Part shown: piece after piece, positions 2,766 through 28,902 of the stretch | Layout of the letters: every line of letters begins with the position of its first letter | Position numbering within the stretch: the first letter of the stretch is position 1 | Source of the DNA: Planctomycetota bacterium | GTDB taxonomy: Bacteria > Planctomycetota > SZUA-567 > H5-PLA8 | Reading direction: 5' to 3' | NCBI GenBank assembly: GCA_038227875.1 | Contig: JBBRPR010000058.1 | Location: 1-52,281 of the forward strand | Length of the DNA: 52,281 bases | Notes under the pieces: generated by a model | Told to the model about the DNA's origin: nothing | The model's database searches: none | The model's input: only the letters and a program-made list of their open reading frames with translations | Translations under genes and position numbers: made by a program

Positions 2766-3299
2766 CTAGGCTGCGCACGATGACAATTTACGCAGTTTTC
2801 CTTTCGTCCGAATCGAAGTAGCAATCAATGGATCAGGGTCAGAGCTTGATTCACTAGCGGTGATGGTCTTCGTATAGGCAACGCAAGATTCAAACGCGAA
2901 TCGAGGTGCGTCCGACGGTAAATACGATTCGTTATTTCCGACAACAACCGTAGTAACCTTGGCCATACTGAAATCGCGAAGACTTCCAATCTGAGATTGT
3001 GTCGCGGTCACCATGTCTGCAGAAGAAGAATCTTTGAATGAAACCTCAAGGGTTGCGTTCAGTGCTTGTGCGATTCGTTTCAAAAGTGAAACGGAATGCC
3101 CTTCATAGTCGGCGTTCTCGATGCGACTAATGGCTGTGAAGGTAGTGCCCACCAATACGGCCAGCTCCTTTTGCGTGAGACCGCGTTCTTTGCGTAACGC
3201 AAAGACCTTTCGACCAATGGCAGACTCTTCGCGCGCCTTCTTGAGTTGCGCGTCGAAGTTTGGAATCTGCTTGCGAAGTGCGTCTTTTAGCACGTTCAT
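2766..3299 (-). CDS. higA: HigA-like XRE HTH antitoxin with C-terminal ChAD-like extension
   Basis: LRKERGLTQKELAVLVGTTFTAISRIE HTH, followed by an ~85-aa low-structure tail. Confidence 0.8.
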   Translation of the reverse strand: MNVLKDALRKQIPNFDAQLKKAREESAIGRKVFALRKERGLTQKELAVLVGTTFTAISRIENADYEGHSVSLLKRIAQALNATLEVSFKDSSSADMVTATQSQIGSLRDFSMAKVTTVVVGNNESYLPSDAPRFAFESCVAYTKTITASESSSDPDPLIATSIRTKGKLRKLSSCAA

Positions 3300-3303
3300 G
3301 GAT

Positions 3304-3672
3304 TTAGCTTTCGTATGGTGTTACGTGAGCCTTGAAGTTTTGATTCACAATGGCATTTCTTTTAACAGCGCGTTTGATGTCCTGCGGATCAAGCTTCCTT
3401 TCCTTCCTACATCCATGCAAAAGAACTGCCGTGTTGTTGGAAAAACTGTAAAGAATCCGATATTGAACGTGTCCGCTCTTTGCCCTTAGCTCGCGCAGAC
3501 CGTGGCCTATTGGTTTCGAGGAGGGCTCACCTAGTCGATGGCCGAGTTCCTTCAACTCGTCTATTCTCGCGACAAGGTTCGTTTGGCCAGTGGCGTCCCC
3601 CAAACCCACTATCCACTTGTAGACAGGAACTTCACCGTCAACATCCTTGAAGCACATGACGGTTATCGGCAT
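3304..3672 (-). CDS. higB: HigB/RelE-family (Gp49-like) toxin
   Basis: EPSSKPIGHGLRELR..QYRILY..AVLLHG motif; toxin-first gene order. Confidence 0.85.
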   Translation of the reverse strand: MPITVMCFKDVDGEVPVYKWIVGLGDATGQTNLVARIDELKELGHRLGEPSSKPIGHGLRELRAKSGHVQYRILYSFSNNTAVLLHGCRKERKLDPQDIKRAVKRNAIVNQNFKAHVTPYES

Positions 3673-3689
3673 CCGATTTCTGCCTAACT

Positions 3690-3718
3690 AGACTAAGCAA
3701 AATTGCTAAGTCGGTCAA
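3690..3718 (-). promoter_or_regulatory. TAC operon promoter with overlapping palindromic operator
   Basis: TTGACC-17 bp-TAGTCT on the minus strand; imperfect palindrome GACTAAGCAA-AA-TTGCTAAGTC at 3691-3712 covers the spacer. Confidence 0.7.
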
Positions 3719-3788
3719 AGAAAATTTAGAGACTCAGAATCAAGTAGTAACGTGTTAGGGTAATATCAACATGGAAAATATCTACCAC

Positions 3789-5156
3789 TTAAACCCCATC
3801 GCTTCCCAGATGCCGATGCTCCTTCAGTGCAGTCATAGCCCCCAAGTTCAAACTCCCCGTATCCGGATCGCCGTAGGCATCGATGATCTGTTGCGCTGTG
3901 TTGCCCAAAAGCTTCGCAATCCGGTCCGCGCCGATGTTCTGTTGCAGCATCCAGGATGCACAGCAGCGCCGGCCAACGCGGGCATCCAGTAGTTTCCTGT
4001 CGATGCCCTCCACAGTGCCCGCCGCCGCCCGCAAGGCCTTCACATACTGGCGATCGAACATCTTCGGATCGTCCCAAAGACGGTCGACGCGCTTCTTTGC
4101 GTTCTTGGATTTCTTGCCCTTGGCCTTCTGCGTGAAAAGTATGTCATTGAGCGCCAGGCGGCCGCGGATGACATCGCGCAGTTCCGAGGGTACCGGGATC
4201 GATCGCGGGCCTGTCTTCAGCGTCAGGTGTCCCCGCGGCGCCAGCGTCAGTTCTGAAAGTTCGGCGTTGAAGTTTTCGCGGTGGAGTGACGGGAGCTCTT
4301 CCGGCCGCAATCCGAGCGTGCATTGAACCTTGAACGCCGAGCGCCAGTAATCCGGCAACGCGCTGGCCAGTTTCTCAGCGTCGGGCTTCGGCAGATAGCG
4401 GATCCGGCCGCGGGCTTCCTTGATCTTCTTCCGGCTGATGCGATCGATCTTCGTTTTATCCAGCTCGACGCCGGACTCTCGGAGCAAGCGCAGGATATAC
4501 CAAAGCCACTGCATGCGGCGGGAAGGGGAGAGCGGCTTGCCGACTTTATTCTTGAGCCCGTGAAGCCAGCCGCTGATTTCGCGTTCGCGCCCCACGAGGT
4601 TGTCAATCCGGGTCGATTCGATGAACTTGTCAACGAAGCGCTGCAGGTCCCACAGCACGTTCTCCGTGTGGTTGGGGTCTTTGCCCGTGTACGCGGCTTT
4701 GAATGCAGCCAGTGCTTCGCCAAGCGTCGGATATGGCCCGCTACGGACCTTCTTGCCCCGCCAGTGTTCAAGTTCCCGGTCTTTGCGTTCGACCACGGCC
4801 AGCAGCCGTTCGATCTCGCGCTTGAAAAGAATCTCGCCGGCCTTGAGCCGGGCGTTCTCGATGGCCAGCGATGATGTTTTGCTACCCTTCGGCGCGGTCT
4901 TGAGCTTCACGGCATGCCCGGACCCAAGCCACGCACGGCGAATCCGGTCGGGAATGTCCGCGCCGGCGGGCGGGGTGTGCCAGTAGTCCGGGGTCATCCA
5001 GATACGGTTTAGCGCGGCGAGGTTGGTAGCCTGCTCGTCGGCCCCTCCCAAACCCACACAAACGACGCTACCGCGTGTCGGATGGCGAAACCGCACAAAG
5101 AACAAGTTGCCCTCTTGGACTGACTGTAGGCGCTTGCGTTCGCGTGGCATGGGCAT
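3789..5156 (-). CDS. tyrosine recombinase / integrase
   Basis: LGLRPEEL (Arg), LKTG (Lys), RVGRR..LLGNT..DAY catalytic region; adjacent to a tRNA 3' end. Confidence 0.85.
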   Translation of the reverse strand: MPMPRERKRLQSVQEGNLFFVRFRHPTRGSVVCVGLGGADEQATNLAALNRIWMTPDYWHTPPAGADIPDRIRRAWLGSGHAVKLKTAPKGSKTSSLAIENARLKAGEILFKREIERLLAVVERKDRELEHWRGKKVRSGPYPTLGEALAAFKAAYTGKDPNHTENVLWDLQRFVDKFIESTRIDNLVGREREISGWLHGLKNKVGKPLSPSRRMQWLWYILRLLRESGVELDKTKIDRISRKKIKEARGRIRYLPKPDAEKLASALPDYWRSAFKVQCTLGLRPEELPSLHRENFNAELSELTLAPRGHLTLKTGPRSIPVPSELRDVIRGRLALNDILFTQKAKGKKSKNAKKRVDRLWDDPKMFDRQYVKALRAAAGTVEGIDRKLLDARVGRRCCASWMLQQNIGADRIAKLLGNTAQQIIDAYGDPDTGSLNLGAMTALKEHRHLGSDGV

Positions 5157-10995: not shown

Positions 10996-11340
10996 ATGAA
11001 TGCCACGATTGATGTTCCTGTAAAGCAAGCCAAGCTACTGACTTCCACGGAGGCTGTGGAACTGCTGGCCAGCAAGTTCAAAAGAATCGCCCGCCGCCTC
11101 TGGCCCAGCAACGAGCGACGCATTAAGGAAGACCTCGTTCAAGAGATGAACCTGGCGTGTCTGAAGGTTTCGGTGCCTATGACAGCAAAGACCTTCACCG
11201 CCGTAGCGATCAGTCGCGCCATCGACTACCTGGACCGCGAAGAGCGTCACGAGAGGTTGACGATGATGGCGCCGGACAAACTCGCGTTGCTGTCCGATCG
11301 CCAGCAGGCCCGCCGCCTGAAATCCGCACCCACTCGGTAA
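10996..11340 (+). CDS. small sigma70 region-2-like protein lacking region 4
   Basis: KEDLVQEMNLACL...FTAVAISRAIDYLDRE resembles ECF sigma region 2; 114 aa; GGAGG RBS. Confidence 0.6.
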   Translation: MNATIDVPVKQAKLLTSTEAVELLASKFKRIARRLWPSNERRIKEDLVQEMNLACLKVSVPMTAKTFTAVAISRAIDYLDREERHERLTMMAPDKLALLSDRQQARRLKSAPTR

Positions 11341-11550: not shown

Positions 11551-12948
11551 ATGACCGATGGAAAATGGAAAATGAAGCCGTCCCACGATTTCGCCGACTG
11601 GTGCGAAGCCCACGCCTACGTCGAATGCAAGCTCGCGCACCGGGTCGTGCCCTTCAATCTCTACCCCTGCCAGCGCCGCGTGGCCGATCTGCTCGAAGCC
11701 AGGCAGTGGCTCTGGATTCTCAAAGCCCGCCGCCTGGGCCTCACCTGGCTCCTGGCCGCGTACGCGACCTGGCTGCTGACCGAACACGAAAACAGGACGA
11801 TCCTGGTGCTCAACCAAAGCAAAGACTACGCGCAGGATTTTCTCGAACGGATGCGCCTGATCCTTCAGCATCTCCCCGAGGACATGCGACCGAAAGCCAC
11901 GCGCGACAACAAGCAGCAAATGAGCTTCGACAATGGCGGCTCGGTCCGTTCCCTGGCCTGCACACGCCGCGCGATCCGTTCCATCTCCGCCGATCTGGTG
12001 ATCTTCGATGAGGCTGCGTACATGGACCTGCTGAAAGACGCCCGCAAAGCCGCGCAGCCGGCCGTCGAAATGGGCGGCGGCCAGGTCGTCGCCCTCTCCA
12101 CCAGCAGCGGCCCGTCGGGAGAATTCTACGACATCTGGAACCAGGCCGCCGACGGCAAGGCGCGTTACACCCCGGTCTTTCTCGACTGGCGTCAGCTCCG
12201 CCGCCGCGACGACAAATGGTACGAACAGGAAGCCCGCGAAAATCTCTCCGACCCGCTCTACATGAAGCGCGAGTATCCGTCATCCGCGGAAGAAGCATTC
12301 GAATCCGCCGAAGGCCGCTGCTTCCCGCTCTTCATCCGCAGCGAGAAATTCATCCACGCCCGCGCCATCGAACCGCGCTGGACCAAGTACCGCGGCATCG
12401 ATTTCGGCGGCGTTGACCCCTTCGTCTGTCTCTGGGGCGCCGAAATCCCCGGCGACGGCCCCGGCCTCACCGTCGATCCGTCCTGCACGAACCTGATCCG
12501 CGAAATGCTCGCCTATTCCTACGATTCCGCCGGCGTGCCCGGCGCCAAAGACAATCATGCCTGCGACGCGCTGCGCTATCTGGTCTCCTCACCGCCCATT
12601 ACCGGACACGTTCACATCTACCGCGAATTCTACCTCCCCAACAGCGCCGCACTCGGTTACAGCCTCGGCGAACTCCAGGACAAAATCGACCTGATGACCG
12701 GCGACGAACAAATCCGCAAAACCTTCGCTGACGCCGCGCGCCCAGACATGATCGAACAGATGAACAGACTCTGGCCGACGCAACGCTACCGCCATCTCCA
12801 CGGCAACTCCATCAGCCAGATCCTCCAGGGTCTCAACTACGTGAACGGCCTGATCGTCGGCACCGCCAAAAACCGCCCGCCCGAACCGCCCCCCAAACGC
12901 AAAGTCATCGGCCTCCCCGACACCATCCGCAAGCGGGGACTGTATTGA
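11551..12948 (+). CDS. terminase large subunit (start may be 11572)
   Basis: Walker A ILKARRLGLTW, Walker B LVIFDEAA, motif III ALSTS; nuclease motifs GIDFG, TFAD and DNHACDALRY. Confidence 0.92.
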   Translation: MTDGKWKMKPSHDFADWCEAHAYVECKLAHRVVPFNLYPCQRRVADLLEARQWLWILKARRLGLTWLLAAYATWLLTEHENRTILVLNQSKDYAQDFLERMRLILQHLPEDMRPKATRDNKQQMSFDNGGSVRSLACTRRAIRSISADLVIFDEAAYMDLLKDARKAAQPAVEMGGGQVVALSTSSGPSGEFYDIWNQAADGKARYTPVFLDWRQLRRRDDKWYEQEARENLSDPLYMKREYPSSAEEAFESAEGRCFPLFIRSEKFIHARAIEPRWTKYRGIDFGGVDPFVCLWGAEIPGDGPGLTVDPSCTNLIREMLAYSYDSAGVPGAKDNHACDALRYLVSSPPITGHVHIYREFYLPNSAALGYSLGELQDKIDLMTGDEQIRKTFADAARPDMIEQMNRLWPTQRYRHLHGNSISQILQGLNYVNGLIVGTAKNRPPEPPPKRKVIGLPDTIRKRGLY

Positions 12949-13012
12949 ATGTCGAATGTCGAATGTCGAATGTCGAATGTCGAATGTCGAATGTCGAATG
13001 TCGAATGTCGAA
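12947..13012. repeat. (GAATGTC)9 heptamer array
   Basis: Perfect tandem array starting within the terminase stop codon. Confidence 0.95.
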
Positions 13013-13551: not shown

Positions 13552-14127
13552 ATGGATCGCGAATTCCAGCGTCTGGTCGAAATTGAACGGGAGTCCTACG
13601 TTGCTTACTTCCGTCAAAATGTTGCAGCCATGCGATCCAGCCCGAATTTCGTGACAGAGCTGCTCATGCAGCCTAACGGCAGAACAACGCCAGAACCGTT
13701 CTGTCTGATGCGTATCGATGGAATTTTTGGAGGCGCGAGCGACCCAAAGATCGTCCGATTTGTACTTCCCAACACGCAACGTCCGATCAATCGAAATTGG
13801 CTTCTTGATGGATTTGACATGCGTATCGAGGCGTTGTCGTGGGAATCGTTCCTTATTCGATTTAAAGTAGGCCAATTCAAATTGGAGTCTCTCGCTCCGT
13901 GGCTTACTCTGTGGCTTGACCCAAAGGAACATCGCGCGCCCGACAAGGACGGCCTCAGTGGAGTCGTACACGACATGGCTTGGACCTACGGCAATGACAA
14001 CACAATAGAACTAACTATAGATTTTGGCTCGGCACCGCTGCAGGCGTTATTTGAATTTCTTGCCCTAATCAAACAATCAGGAGTTACAGCTTGCACAATT
14101 TCACGTGGAGATAGCGACATACAATAA
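13552..14127 (+). CDS. hypothetical protein (lower-GC insert between terminase and portal)
   Basis: AGGAG RBS; 191 aa; more A/T-ending codons than the flanking genes. Confidence 0.65.
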   Translation: MDREFQRLVEIERESYVAYFRQNVAAMRSSPNFVTELLMQPNGRTTPEPFCLMRIDGIFGGASDPKIVRFVLPNTQRPINRNWLLDGFDMRIEALSWESFLIRFKVGQFKLESLAPWLTLWLDPKEHRAPDKDGLSGVVHDMAWTYGNDNTIELTIDFGSAPLQALFEFLALIKQSGVTACTISRGDSDIQ

Positions 14128-14280: not shown

Positions 14281-15885
14281 ATGCCCCTCGCCACCACCCT
14301 CCTTTCCCGCCGCGCCGACATCGAAGACATCGTCAGCGAGAACAAAATCGTCGAAGACGTCCTCGCCGGCCGCAGCGCCATCGTCACGCGGACCTCGCGC
14401 AAAGGCGGCGCGTTCAAGCCCGATCTCGATCTGCCCTTCGAGATCGCATCGTCGCCAACCTTCGCGCCCGTCACCGGCGGGCCGGCCCTGCCCGTCGCCG
14501 AATCGCGCTACATCCCCAAGCACTCCGTCGAATCGTTCGACGAATACGCGCGCCGCCTGGACATGACCCCGTTCTTCGCCGAAACGCCCGGCATCCTCCA
14601 ATCCCGCCAGGGCGCGCTCTTCCGCAAACCGCCCGACGTCCACGTGCCCGAAGCGCTCCAGCCGTTCGTCAACTGCGCGACGGTCAACAACATGAGCTTT
14701 CTCGATGTGATCGTGAAGCTCAGCGAACAATGCCAGGTCGGCGGCTTTGCCGGACTGCTCGTCGATCGCGAAATTCTTCCGACCGATGTCCGCGACAGAG
14801 CCGTCACGCAGGCCGAAGTCAACGCGCGAGGACTCGGGCGCGTCATCGTCGCGCCCTTCGCCGCTCACCAGATCCGCGATTGGGCCTCCGACCGCCACGG
14901 TCTCGTCTGGGTCAAGCTCGTCGAACTCCACGACAACTACGACGCGCAGTGGGACGGCCACAAGCGCGACATTTACACCGTGCGCGTCGTCGACCGGATC
15001 AACATCACCGTCTGGGATGTGGAGAAGAAAAAAGACGGCAGCTACGTCGTCGCCGATCCCGTCGTGATCCCGCACGGCGCAACCGACGCCGCCGGCCGGC
15101 CGGTCGTCCCCTTCCGCATGTTCCACCCGTTTCCCGCGCGCGACGGCATCGGCCGCTCCAACCTGCGCGCCAGCGCCGACGCCGACGTCGCCGCCACGCG
15201 CGTGCTCAGCGACCTGCTCTGGTTCATGCATATGATGGCGCCGATCCTGGTGCTCACGACCACGCGCGAAAAAAGTGAGATCGCCAACATCGGCCTCGGC
15301 GCGTCGTACCTCAACGTCCTCCAGGGCGCGCATGAAGGCGTCCCCGAAGAGAAGCTCGCCTACGTCCAGCTCGACGCCACGCCCGCCGAAAAACTCTCGC
15401 GCATGTACGAAACGCTCTGCCAGAAAGCGCGCGAACAGGCGAACAAAAGCGCCGACGCCGGCGTCGCCGGCCCGGTCCATCAAAGCGGCATCAGCAAAGC
15501 CTGGACGTTCAAAACCGGCGAAGAGCGCGTCCTCTTTCTGCTCTCAATCTGCCTGCAGGAAGGACTGCAATGGACGCTGGAACTGGCCGCGAGAATGTCC
15601 GGCCACGGCACCGAGAAAGTCGCCGTCGGCTTCCCGCAGAATTACGATATCACCGGAGCCCCCGAACAGATCGCGATCACGGAACAAGCGCTCCCGCTGC
15701 TGACCGAATACGGTCTGAACACCGCCGCGATCCACCTGCTGAGCAAACTCGGCCTCAACCTGATGACCAACCCGAGCGACGACGAGCTGCGCACCTTCCG
15801 CGCCGAGATCACCGCCCTGAAATCCCGCGACCTGAAAACCAGCGTCCCCTTCAGCGAGCCGTTGAAAGTGAGCGAGCGGGTGTGA
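14281..15885 (+). CDS. phage portal protein (DUF4055/SPP1-like)
   Basis: ESFDEYARRL..TPF..GALFRKPP N-terminal signature; 534 aa; follows the terminase. Confidence 0.8.
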   Translation: MPLATTLLSRRADIEDIVSENKIVEDVLAGRSAIVTRTSRKGGAFKPDLDLPFEIASSPTFAPVTGGPALPVAESRYIPKHSVESFDEYARRLDMTPFFAETPGILQSRQGALFRKPPDVHVPEALQPFVNCATVNNMSFLDVIVKLSEQCQVGGFAGLLVDREILPTDVRDRAVTQAEVNARGLGRVIVAPFAAHQIRDWASDRHGLVWVKLVELHDNYDAQWDGHKRDIYTVRVVDRINITVWDVEKKKDGSYVVADPVVIPHGATDAAGRPVVPFRMFHPFPARDGIGRSNLRASADADVAATRVLSDLLWFMHMMAPILVLTTTREKSEIANIGLGASYLNVLQGAHEGVPEEKLAYVQLDATPAEKLSRMYETLCQKAREQANKSADAGVAGPVHQSGISKAWTFKTGEERVLFLLSICLQEGLQWTLELAARMSGHGTEKVAVGFPQNYDITGAPEQIAITEQALPLLTEYGLNTAAIHLLSKLGLNLMTNPSDDELRTFRAEITALKSRDLKTSVPFSEPLKVSERV

Positions 15886-16034: not shown

Positions 16035-16739
16035 ATGCCCGACCCCGACCCGCCCAACCCGCCAACCCCGCCCGCGACGGAAGCCACCCCCGCCGACCTG
16101 CACCGCCGCCTCGACGAAACGCTCGAGCGCCTCGCACGCTTCGAGCGCGATATGCCCCGCGTCGTCGCACGCATCGCCGCGGGCATGACCGAAGGCCGGC
16201 CCCAGCCACCCGCGCCGAAAAACGACGACCGCATCGCCGCGCTCGAGCGCCAGCTTCAGGAGGAAAAACAGCGCCGCATCCGCACCGAACATGAAAATAA
16301 AGTCCGCGCCGCGGTCTCCGCCGTCCCCTGGGTCGACCCCGAAGACCCCGTCGCCGAACTGCTCAACAAAGTCGAAGAACGCGACGGCCAGCTCGTCGTG
16401 ATGGGCACCCGCAAATTCGAGAGCGGCGAAATCTACCCCGAAGCCTTTCCGCTCGACGAAGCCGTCAAGCAACTCGCCCAGCGCAAATCCCACTGGATCA
16501 AAGCCGACGTCAAAGGCGGCAGCGGCGCCAGCGGCAGCGCCGGCCTGAACGGCGGCGGAAGTGGTGGAAGCAGCCACGCCAGCACCGTCACCTGGGACGC
16601 CATCAAATACCGCGACCTGAAATCCGACCCCGTCCTGATGCAACGCGCCATCGCCGAAAAAGGCCACCCGTGGGTCGCCAATCTCCACGACAAATGGCTG
16701 CAGAAACAGGCGAAGAAGGCGCAGACGTTCACCATTTAG
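16035..16739 (+). CDS. capsid scaffolding protein
   Basis: Pro-rich start, coiled coil and GGSGASGS linker; lies directly before the capsid gene; AGGAGG RBS. Confidence 0.65.
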   Translation: MPDPDPPNPPTPPATEATPADLHRRLDETLERLARFERDMPRVVARIAAGMTEGRPQPPAPKNDDRIAALERQLQEEKQRRIRTEHENKVRAAVSAVPWVDPEDPVAELLNKVEERDGQLVVMGTRKFESGEIYPEAFPLDEAVKQLAQRKSHWIKADVKGGSGASGSAGLNGGGSGGSSHASTVTWDAIKYRDLKSDPVLMQRAIAEKGHPWVANLHDKWLQKQAKKAQTFTI

Positions 16740-16892: not shown

Positions 16893-17939
16893 ATGGCCGT
16901 AACTCTCCCCACCGACTTCTTCCTCCCCCAACTCGCGCTGCAGTACATGCGTCAGGGCTTCTACGAATCCATGCAGCCCATGCAGCGCCTCGTCTCGCAG
17001 ACCGATCCGTCCGCGCCGATCTGCCTCGTCAACGACCCGACCATGGAAGTCAGCCAGTACGTTCAGGGCCCGACCTTCCAGCGCATGGGCAACTCCGCCG
17101 TCTCGCTGCGCGACATCACCAGCAACTCCGCCGCGACGCCGATCAAGATCACGGCCGTTAACGACCAGGGCGTGAAATGCCACCGCAAGGCCGGTCCGTT
17201 CGAATGGACGCTCGACGCCGCGCGCCTAGCCGGGCTGGGCAACGACGACCTCTCGCGAGCTGCTGCGATCACGCAGGAAATCTCCACGCAGGTCGGCGAA
17301 TACCTCGGCCTCAACGTCCAACGCAGCATGATCGCCGCGCTCCGCGGCATGGTCGAAGCGATGACCACCACCGCGCACACCAGCACCGTCTGGAGCGGCA
17401 CGACGCGAACGAATCTGACACCGGGTCTGCTCAACACCGGCCTGAATCTCATGGGCGACGCGCGCGATTACATCTCGCACTGGCTCTTCCGCTCCGAAGC
17501 GCTGCAGGACCTGTACATCGATGCCATCGGCCGCAGCTTCAGCAACGTCGGCGACAAGGCGCTGGCCGGCAACCAGGACACCAACACGCTGGGCCGCGTC
17601 CGAGCCATCACCGACGACCCGAGCTTGATTGCCACGCCGGGCGGCTTCAACAAGTACTTCACGCTCGGCCTCGGCGCGCAGCAGCTCTACCTGTACTTCA
17701 CGCAGCCGCTGACGATGTACCAGCCCTACGTCGCCACCGACCGCGAAACCGTCACCGTCCGTCTGCGCTGGGATTTCGACTTCGAACTCCGCGGCCGCGG
17801 CCTGGCCTGGAACAGCGGCGCCGGTGGAGCCAACCCCACCGACACCGCGCTGGTCACCGCCGCCAACTGGACCCCGACCTATACGTCCCACAAGGAAGTC
17901 CGCATCGTCGAACTGGTCCACAACTACTCCGGAGCCTAA
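16893..17939 (+). CDS. major capsid protein
   Basis: 348 aa after the scaffold; C-terminal GLAWNSGAGGANPTDTALVTAANW resembles phage coat-protein ends. Confidence 0.75.
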   Translation: MAVTLPTDFFLPQLALQYMRQGFYESMQPMQRLVSQTDPSAPICLVNDPTMEVSQYVQGPTFQRMGNSAVSLRDITSNSAATPIKITAVNDQGVKCHRKAGPFEWTLDAARLAGLGNDDLSRAAAITQEISTQVGEYLGLNVQRSMIAALRGMVEAMTTTAHTSTVWSGTTRTNLTPGLLNTGLNLMGDARDYISHWLFRSEALQDLYIDAIGRSFSNVGDKALAGNQDTNTLGRVRAITDDPSLIATPGGFNKYFTLGLGAQQLYLYFTQPLTMYQPYVATDRETVTVRLRWDFDFELRGRGLAWNSGAGGANPTDTALVTAANWTPTYTSHKEVRIVELVHNYSGA

Positions 17940-17945
17940 ACTCAA

Positions 17946-18062
17946 CGATGAACGATGAGTGATGAACGATGAATTGGAAATACTACTAATTTATAAATCG
18001 ACAATTCATCCATTTCGACATTCGACATTCGACATTCGACATCCCTCATCGTTCATCACTCG
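17946..18062. repeat. inverted ATGAACG arrays enclosing a TTCGACA array
   Basis: GATGAACGATGAGTGATGAACGATG ... CTCATCGTTCATCACTC. Confidence 0.75.
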
Positions 18063-22471: not shown

Positions 22472-22553
22472 TTCGACATTCGACATTCGACATTCGACAT
22501 TCGACATTCGACATTCGACATTCGACCTTCGACATTCGCGACATTCGACATTC
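22472..22553. repeat. (TTCGACA)n heptamer array directly before an RBS
   Basis: About 11 units ending at CCAGGATCCTCCCCATG. Confidence 0.95.
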
Positions 22554-24603: not shown

Positions 24604-24654
24604 TCGACATTCGACATTCGACATTCGACATTCGACATTCGACATTCGACATTC
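24604..24654. repeat. (TCGACAT)7 array directly before an RBS
   Basis: Followed by CGAGGACCAACATG. Confidence 0.95.
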
Positions 24655-28836: not shown

Positions 28837-28902
28837 TTCGACATTCGACATTCGACATTCGACATTCGACATTCGACATTCGACATTCGACATTCGACAT
28901 TC
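28837..28902. repeat. (TTCGACA)9 array directly before an RBS
   Basis: Followed by CGAGGTCCCCATG. Confidence 0.95.

Follow-up and report, generated by a model that had tools for sequence, protein, structure and literature searches.

A large terminase gene with exchanged nuclease blocks in a late-gene module of a Planctomycetota contig

Can the segments of a terminase nuclease be connected in a different order while the enzyme itself is retained? The question is raised by one gene in a 52,281-nucleotide stretch of a Planctomycetota genome (contig JBBRPR010000058.1), the whole of which is termed here the window. The gene codes for a large terminase (TerL), designated P0001, and the original prediction, made from the letters of the window, held that two blocks of its nuclease domain are swapped. 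The blocks indeed follow one another as A-C-B in P0001 and as A-B-C in its normal relatives, the middle and last blocks being exchanged within one intact frame. The protein is very probably a phage TerL whose rearranged domain, to judge from structure models, would adopt the usual RNase H-like fold and would likely cut DNA by the usual two-metal mechanism.

Block order of the nuclease domain

The order was assessed with a hidden Markov model (HMM) made from 79 normal-order nuclease domains alone, which had been gathered via similarity to the A and C blocks of P0001. Together with 158 permuted domains, these 79 constitute the filtered set used below, from which duplicates, truncated or intein-bearing proteins, proteins in which A or C failed to reach 15 bits and proteins with a gap beyond the limits that had been set were removed. 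Three segments of the model match P0001 (E-values for one sequence): positions 1-46 match residues 255-300 (E 1.3e-14), positions 129-176 match residues 303-346 (E 1.4e-16) and positions 47-106 match residues 351-412 (E 6.1e-6). The three pieces are non-collinear and abut, with almost nothing lost between them. The motif order and coordinates of the original prediction, in a single open frame, are borne out. The order that it had quoted for SPP1/PBSX-type enzymes is likewise correct: the metal ligands of SPP1 gp2 occur as D266, D321, H400 and D403 (PMC3592435; here and below, articles are cited from the parts of their text that were available), and those of P0001 as D284, H336, D339 and D394.

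The features of the gene and its surroundings are collected in Table 1. The GIDFG motif of block A starts at 12394 (G282). Block C comprises an edge strand, the C..LI.E helix, a hairpin and the catalytic helix with H336 (12556-12558) and D339 (12565-12567), whereas block B comprises beta3 (HIYREFY), a helix, beta4 with D394 (12730-12732), a further helix, beta5 and a long helix. Circular permutation was considered and rejected, since block A remains first. The P0001 nuclease is a non-circular three-loop permutation, with its inner segments exchanged and three new connections, a type of change described as multiple loop permutation or rethreading (PMC4882587).

Block B gives the weakest of the three HMM matches, and the nuclease part of P0001 (residues 261-465) matches no Pfam family at E-values up to 1; the PHROG nuclease families match at residues 306-353 only. 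It might accordingly be argued that there is no permutation, block B having been deleted and an unrelated C-terminal segment happening to resemble it. This reading is largely refuted and can be given hardly any credence. The block B model from normal-order proteins finds its match after block C in 141 of the 158 permuted proteins and before block C in none of them, and the block B profiles of permuted and normal-order proteins match each other with a profile-profile probability of 98.8% (E 8e-17). Conversely, a block B profile from permuted proteins matches between A and C in 19 normal-order proteins, and blocks A and B of the predicted structure overlay on solved terminase nucleases at 2.4 Å.

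Table 1. Features of the terminase gene and of neighbouring genes in the window (aa, amino acids; ORF, open reading frame)
Feature	Position	Strand	Basis or remark
Small sigma-region-2-like gene	10996..11340	+	PF04542, E 0.0026, below cut-off
Large terminase (TerL), P0001, 465 aa	11551..12948	+	PF03237 Terminase_6N, phrog_2 and T4 gp17 matches
Walker A region, K58-A-R-R-L-G-L-T65	11722..11745	+	Alignment to T4 gp17
Walker B, LVIFDE	11995..12012	+	E154 invariant in family alignment
Block A, aa 255-298: linker strand, beta1, beta2, first catalytic Asp D284 (12400-12402)	12313..12444	+	Normal-order HMM 1-46
New joint 1, beta2 to edge strand, IPGDG	12445..12459	+	Conserved length in permuted proteins
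Block C, aa 304-347, normally last	12460..12591	+	Normal-order HMM 129-176; LTVDP..NHACDALRY
New joint 2, catalytic helix to beta3, PPIT	12592..12603	+	Conserved length in permuted proteins
Block B, aa 352-437, normally middle	12604..12861	+	Normal-order HMM 47-106; HVHIYREFY..FADAARPD..GLNYVNGLIVG
C-terminal tail, aa 438-465, Pro- and Lys/Arg-rich	12862..12945	+	Sequence; now after block B, not after the catalytic helix
ORF of 191 aa between TerL and portal	13552-14127		No Pfam/PHROG family match
Portal protein	14281..15885	+	phrog_145, E 3.3e-31
Head scaffolding protein	16035..16739	+	phrog_206, E 1.1e-5
Major capsid protein	16893..17939	+	PF20036, E 4e-35; phrog_247

Conservation of the permuted order

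The permuted order is shared by a large family. A first homologue search yielded 56 proteins, 41 of them (P0001 included) with the order A-C-B, and a wider one took in 150 of 233 representatives (50% identity) among the matches listed. The resulting 198 distinct proteins consist of 146 with the order A-C-B, one A-C-B protein split by an intein, 19 with the order A-B-C, 28 with A and C only and four with other partial sets. Further loci added 31 A-C-B cases out of 124 that could be classified, with the copy in the window among the 31, and then 5 out of 116. Sequences in the permuted family diverge down to about 30% identity, and the two joints keep their length, joint 1 having 4-5 residues in 143 and joint 2 having 4-7 residues in 154 of the 158 permuted proteins. 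The tail is longer in the permuted proteins, with a median of 57 residues compared to 18 in those of normal order.

The original prediction had named misassembly as a possible source of the swap. Among the contig pieces listed for the window, none spans the whole gene and none bridges joint 2. A contig of a different study (12223-12557) does span joint 1, however, and no RNA data set was among the listed sources of the sequence; on that contig, which represents a near relative, 13 of the 17 listed differences fall at third codon positions. The A-C-B homologues of the first search come from ENA, JGI, NCBI and Logan assemblies, and the genomes of five relatives share the order. No sign of misassembly was seen among homologues and contig pieces, and an assembly artefact, refuted by the independent homologues, has a negligible probability.

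Inteins favour essential sites. In five relatives (P0069, P0072, P0074, P0099 and P0101) an intein is inserted directly before the equivalent of D339, and P0072 carries a second one in beta2. Two other loci (L258 and L259) show a gap of about 200 residues at the place of the inteins before the D339 equivalent.

Several partial proteins were also observed. P0171 (112 residues) has normal-type blocks A and C joined directly, with block B nowhere in the protein; it may have arisen by deletion or by chimeric assembly, or may be a move towards this rewiring made independently. Many viral contigs (in the range L041-L101) code for ATPase-only proteins of about 295-305 residues, with a related ATPase, that end just past the linker and are apparently split terminases. 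ATPase-only terminase-like proteins of about 320 residues occur in three Bacteroidales genome records (L027, L032 and L033).

Predicted fold and active site

The AlphaFold model of the nuclease domain has a predicted local distance difference test (pLDDT) of 96 and a predicted template modelling score (pTM) of 0.92, and neither joint is of low confidence. The superposition on a solved nuclease that the original prediction had proposed was obtained piecewise: blocks A and B, and blocks A and C, each superpose on solved terminase nucleases at 2.0-3.0 Å, from two predicted models. The top 10 structural matches of the domain model and the top 14 of an A and C fragment model are all terminases, and the best are nucleases of the SPP1 gp2 and D6E type (PDB 2wc9, 5oe8). 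Foldseek, which aligns sequentially and was also run against a viral library, gave weak scores for the domain model (best E 8e-4, TM 0.54). In the rewired domain the secondary-structure elements are predicted to be placed as in the SPP1, D6E and P22 terminases, with three loops alone reconnected.

As terminases act as rings (PMC5727402) and a single loop separates block B, now terminal in the chain, from the rest of the domain, a subunit might lend its block B to the nuclease of the adjacent subunit of the motor. Such domain swapping is very improbable: a single chain is predicted to fold at the confidence given above, without a low-confidence joint, and the joints are short and of constant length.

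The catalytic residues are kept in the permuted proteins. The position of D284 is occupied by Asp in 157 of 158, that of D339 in 153 and that of D394 in 152; position 336 has His in 139 proteins and Asp in the other 19, compared to no Asp in the 79 normal-order proteins. For three of the four ligands, permuted and normal-order proteins show equal conservation, and the claim that the swap in an intact reading frame preserves the acidic catalytic motifs is supported. By analogy to D266, D321, H400 and D403 of SPP1, D284 would bridge both metals of an SPP1-type two-metal site, D394 would hold metal B, and H336 and D339 together would hold metal A. The residue pattern and the model suggest that the permuted nuclease likely still cuts DNA, with the chemistry of the SPP1-type terminases by analogy, and the enzyme would make sequence-independent cuts of the headful type.

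The original prediction also suggested altered cutting behaviour, i.e., that the rewiring itself changes the rate, metal preference, cut geometry or sequence bias. The catalytic helix is tied to beta3 by a loop of 4-7 residues rather than continuing into a free arm, and its mobility could change; an engineered, three-loop rethreaded dihydrofolate reductase (DHFR) kept its fold and lost its activity (PMC4882587). The Asp found at the His position, in permuted but not in normal-order proteins, also speaks for such a change. On the other hand, the same replacement is found at this ligand position in T4, human cytomegalovirus and P22 (PMC3592435), and ligand conservation and predicted geometry are those of normal terminases. 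The domain moreover works with different ATPases and heads, as fits a drop-in part. The claim of altered cutting is therefore not upheld, and we regard it as unlikely.

It is very improbable that the nuclease is vestigial, as in phi29, whose nuclease domain is inactive (PMC13595956), and that its order was free to change once cutting had become irrelevant. Neither a replication gene nor a small terminase gene was detected in the window's element, as this explanation might predict. Still, the four ligand positions are kept down to the lowest identities in the family, the inteins sit in the active-site helix, and the elements that harbour relatives carry replication genes of a transposase-like or DnaB type.

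Separate histories of nuclease and ATPase

For the trees, the blocks were set in a common order by script before alignment. In the unrooted nuclease tree made with IQ-TREE, all 28 permuted rows lie on one side of a branch that separates them from 24 normal rows (support 99/98). The ATPase tree, in contrast, distributes the permuted proteins among other terminases in groups of 90, 48, 3 and 1, and holding 25 permuted ATPases together against 24 others was rejected by the approximately unbiased (AU) test (p 0.00044; LG+G4 without a mixture model, 49 of 318 rows). On these sequence trees the permuted nucleases share one origin and the attached ATPases have several. The lineage proposed in the original prediction thus holds for the nuclease domains but not for whole terminases.

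Because the ATPases do not form one group, the nuclease domain has likely moved between motors. On the simplest reading of the trees, the rewiring would have happened once, and the domain would then have been exchanged at the linker between ATPase and nuclease. The A-C-B order is taken as derived because all solved terminases that were matched have the normal order. Most ATPases of the permuted family carry the pattern K-x-R-x-x-G, whereas the closest normal-order nucleases are attached to ATPases of the G-K-[ST] type. The cultured phages PTXU04 and H6/1 have an ATPase of the second type present in the permuted family, but a different nuclease that reads in normal order. The head genes differ as well: close relatives have a phrog_145 portal with a phrog_247 capsid protein, and the distant loci with a scanned portal gene have a phrog_156 portal (7 of 7), one of them with DnaB-type replication genes.

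Comparison with known terminases

All three blocks are homologous to those of the SPP1 gp2, D6E and PBSX-type nucleases (PF17288 Terminase_3C, PF17289 Terminase_6C; phrog_2, phrog_5653), and SPP1 gp2 has the same four ligand types as P0001. The normal-order relatives P0153 and P0160 pass the cut-offs of PF17289 and PF17288. Unlike members of these two families, P0001 is not collinear (A-B-C) with the His/Asp helix last, and unlike in D6E its catalytic helix is internal, so that the C-terminal arm of D6E cannot follow. Compared to the T4 gp17-like ATPase family (PF03237; PDB 3cpe, 3ezk), P0001 shows no sequence match to the T4 nuclease and has Leu at the position of the Walker A lysine.

A collinear match to a known terminase family, which the original prediction had named as evidence against a swap, was found neither in Pfam nor in GenBank phages (50,697 records), where tblastn with the domain, P0001 and the distant P0105 gave no place covering 80% of the query. 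PTXU04, the longest match (73%), and H6/1 were rejected as members, since their normal-order nuclease is of another subfamily, to which the block HMMs gave no meaningful match. In the IMG/VR scans permuted proteins were found in 0 of 80, 3 of 80 and 0 of 1 loci among the matches listed, so that the viral range is undercounted. The ESM Atlas, queried with P0120, returned terminase-like clusters and no new information.

No description of a permuted terminase nuclease was found in the literature covered, which was that outside closed journals and supplements. In the text available, a survey of the RNase H superfamily reports rearrangements in the form of helix reversal and extra strands (PMC3985635), a 2026 review describes terminase nuclease domains as practically indistinguishable across viruses (PMC13595956), and the string 'permut' occurs in neither; two further articles use 'permutation' for other things (PMC7617512, PMC7824862, parts available). 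The A-C-B terminase nuclease is a real new variant of a known enzyme. Unlike the engineered, rethreaded DHFR (rDHFR-1), whose activity was lost (PMC4882587), it is natural, with more than 140 members, block-level homology to the parent order and conserved ligands. In such a natural family the rewiring of a fold can be followed cleanly at the sequence level.

Possible consequences and origin of the rewiring

In D6E an arm after the last helix (residues 418-427) reaches the ATPase site, and its removal raises the Michaelis constant (Km) for ATP about 20-fold; similar C-terminal arms were proposed to meet the portal (PMC5727402). In the permuted enzymes the catalytic helix would run directly into beta3 and no longer be followed by a free arm, while the chain would leave from the long helix of block B, the tail being displaced from the catalytic helix. 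Because the usual arm is displaced, regulation would be the likelier thing affected: by analogy with D6E, the coupling of motor to nuclease or of motor to portal, rather than the chemistry, might be likeliest to differ.

In a non-circular permutation three loops must change together while one chain is kept (PMC4882587). One route would start with a duplication of B-C, after which the first B and later the second C would be lost (A-B-C-B-C to A-C-B-C to A-C-B), and each step would keep a foldable domain; the finished domain would then spread by recombination at the ATPase-nuclease linker. This route is conjectural, and a one-step excision and reinsertion may be the alternative.

Combining these elements, we tentatively propose that a three-loop rethreading occurred once in nature, left the nuclease active, and was passed on as a plug-in part to no fewer than three ATPase lineages and two kinds of head, because the shift of the arm away from the catalytic helix uncoupled the nuclease from its original ATPase and portal. 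In its entirety this scenario is possible rather than probable. If true, it would provide a natural test of the arm's role in the switch from pumping to cutting.

Several points weigh against the picture presented here. The structure aligners are sequential and give ranges only, A and C were fitted as a fragment modelled separately, and AlphaFold may be biased towards terminase folds that it has already seen. A FastTree of 237 rows needs two changes of order, as it places the normal-order P0153, on a long branch, inside the permuted group; P0153 falls outside that group in the trees from A and C only and from B only (one change each) and in the IQ-TREE tree. The simple model and the sampling of the AU test count on the same side. 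Intermediates of the duplication route were not found among 457 proteins, nor did proteins of 1128-3220 residues give a hit, which is weak evidence, and the block HMMs detected no remnant of block C in the tails. Finally, the element in the window has no recognisable small terminase or replication genes and no transposase, and this copy may make no phage.

The variant matters beyond this locus. It bears on how cutting is held off during packaging, as the arm, whose proposed role is to couple nuclease, ATPase and portal (PMC5727402), is moved and the active site kept. Pfam misses the permuted nuclease, and whole-protein TerL trees, as used in phage classification or for guessing the packaging mode, would combine two domains, ATPase and nuclease, whose ancestries differ.

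The ATPase half and the genomic context

The N-terminal half of P0001 is a terminase ATPase, with matches to PF03237 Terminase_6N (E 4.1e-15; 56.4 bits, cut-off 22), phrog_2 (E 2.5e-35) and residues 15-219 of T4 gp17 (E 4.5e-19). P0001 has Leu where the G-K-T of T4 has its lysine, and a conserved Lys upstream; we take this lysine-shifted motif to be what is called a deviant Walker A. The ATPases of the permuted family read K-x-R-x-x-G-x-[ST] in 134 of 142 cases, and in this tally the residue after G is mostly hydrophobic and never K. P0001 thereby combines the features of a TerL: an N-terminal ASCE (additional strand, conserved glutamate) ATPase with Walker A and B, a C-terminal RNase H-like nuclease on the predicted structure, an acidic two-metal site (D, D, H/D, D) from residue conservation, and a locus shared with portal and capsid genes.

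The sigma-like gene upstream is 45% identical to a gene of the related genome G091, and its counterpart in G328 also scores below the cut-off for PF04542 (E 0.00024). Its homologue precedes TerL in the relatives, and it is a possible activator of the late genes. In G091 the portal gene follows directly after TerL, without the 191-residue ORF between them. Between 11340 and 11551 there is no ORF for a small terminase; candidates, without a named profile match, precede TerL in G066 and G328 and resemble the gene before another TerL on contig C92 of the window's own genome (G000).

The late-gene module (10996-31599) stands alone among host genes, with prenyltransferase, Dabb and helix-turn-helix (HTH) genes upstream and PhyH, GDSL and AraC genes downstream. 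G091 (and L237, on the upstream side) contains a similar module of late genes only among host genes, although the flanking genes of the window and G091 are not shared. The window, G091 and L237 lie in an unresolved part of the tree, which does not support a shared origin of these late-genes-only elements. Like a gene transfer agent (GTA), the element in the window is a head-tail cluster without replication genes among host genes; a conserved position shared across the host group, as in a GTA, was not found, the family genomes with a match being 6 of 17 (74-95% complete). The element may be a remnant or a helper-dependent, domesticated or GTA-like element.

Of the 36 loci from a scan of GTDB, five have a full-length permuted gene, each in a Planctomycetota record. 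Full-length matches occur in 5 of 401 genomes sampled from the window's phylum and in 6 of 62 from its class, and since they are confined to the window's family we infer Planctomycetota as the host.

Several relatives reside in prophages with a Mu-like early region. In G066, G328 and G221 a repressor faces a long transposase-like gene, and the late genes that come after are the same; G066 has both a Gam-like gene and a methyltransferase, G328 the former and G221 the latter. The profile matches of this early region are weak (phrog_310, E 0.005; phrog_253, E 0.0009). Unlike these prophages, the window and G091 have no early region, and a Mu-like arrangement is absent from the window's contig (C58). 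The window's genome carries a separate Mu-like prophage, split over contigs C39 (79054-81348) and C92 (L263-L265) with overlapping ends, which has a phrog_38 TerL in normal order, another portal and a small-terminase candidate like those of G066 and G328. The early module is thus shared with those prophages, and the late module is not. In G066, another set of phage late genes begins immediately after the first prophage (contig C2, about 1386866-1408697).

Arrays of a heptamer (at least three copies) lie between genes of the module, at 12947-13009, 18014-18041, 22472-22520, 24604-24652 and 28837-28899. The module (21 kb) holds 5 of the 32 heptamer arrays of the genome, compared to about 0.07 expected by length, whereas the matching modules of G091 and L237 have none. 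The arrays suggest a long residence of the module.

Elsewhere in the window, positions 2766-5156 contain a tyrosine-integrase-like gene (3789-5156, phrog_1) and a pair of Gp49/RelE-like and HTH genes, which is likely a toxin-antitoxin pair. This segment adjoins DNA of lower guanine-cytosine (GC) content and is probably a separate island.
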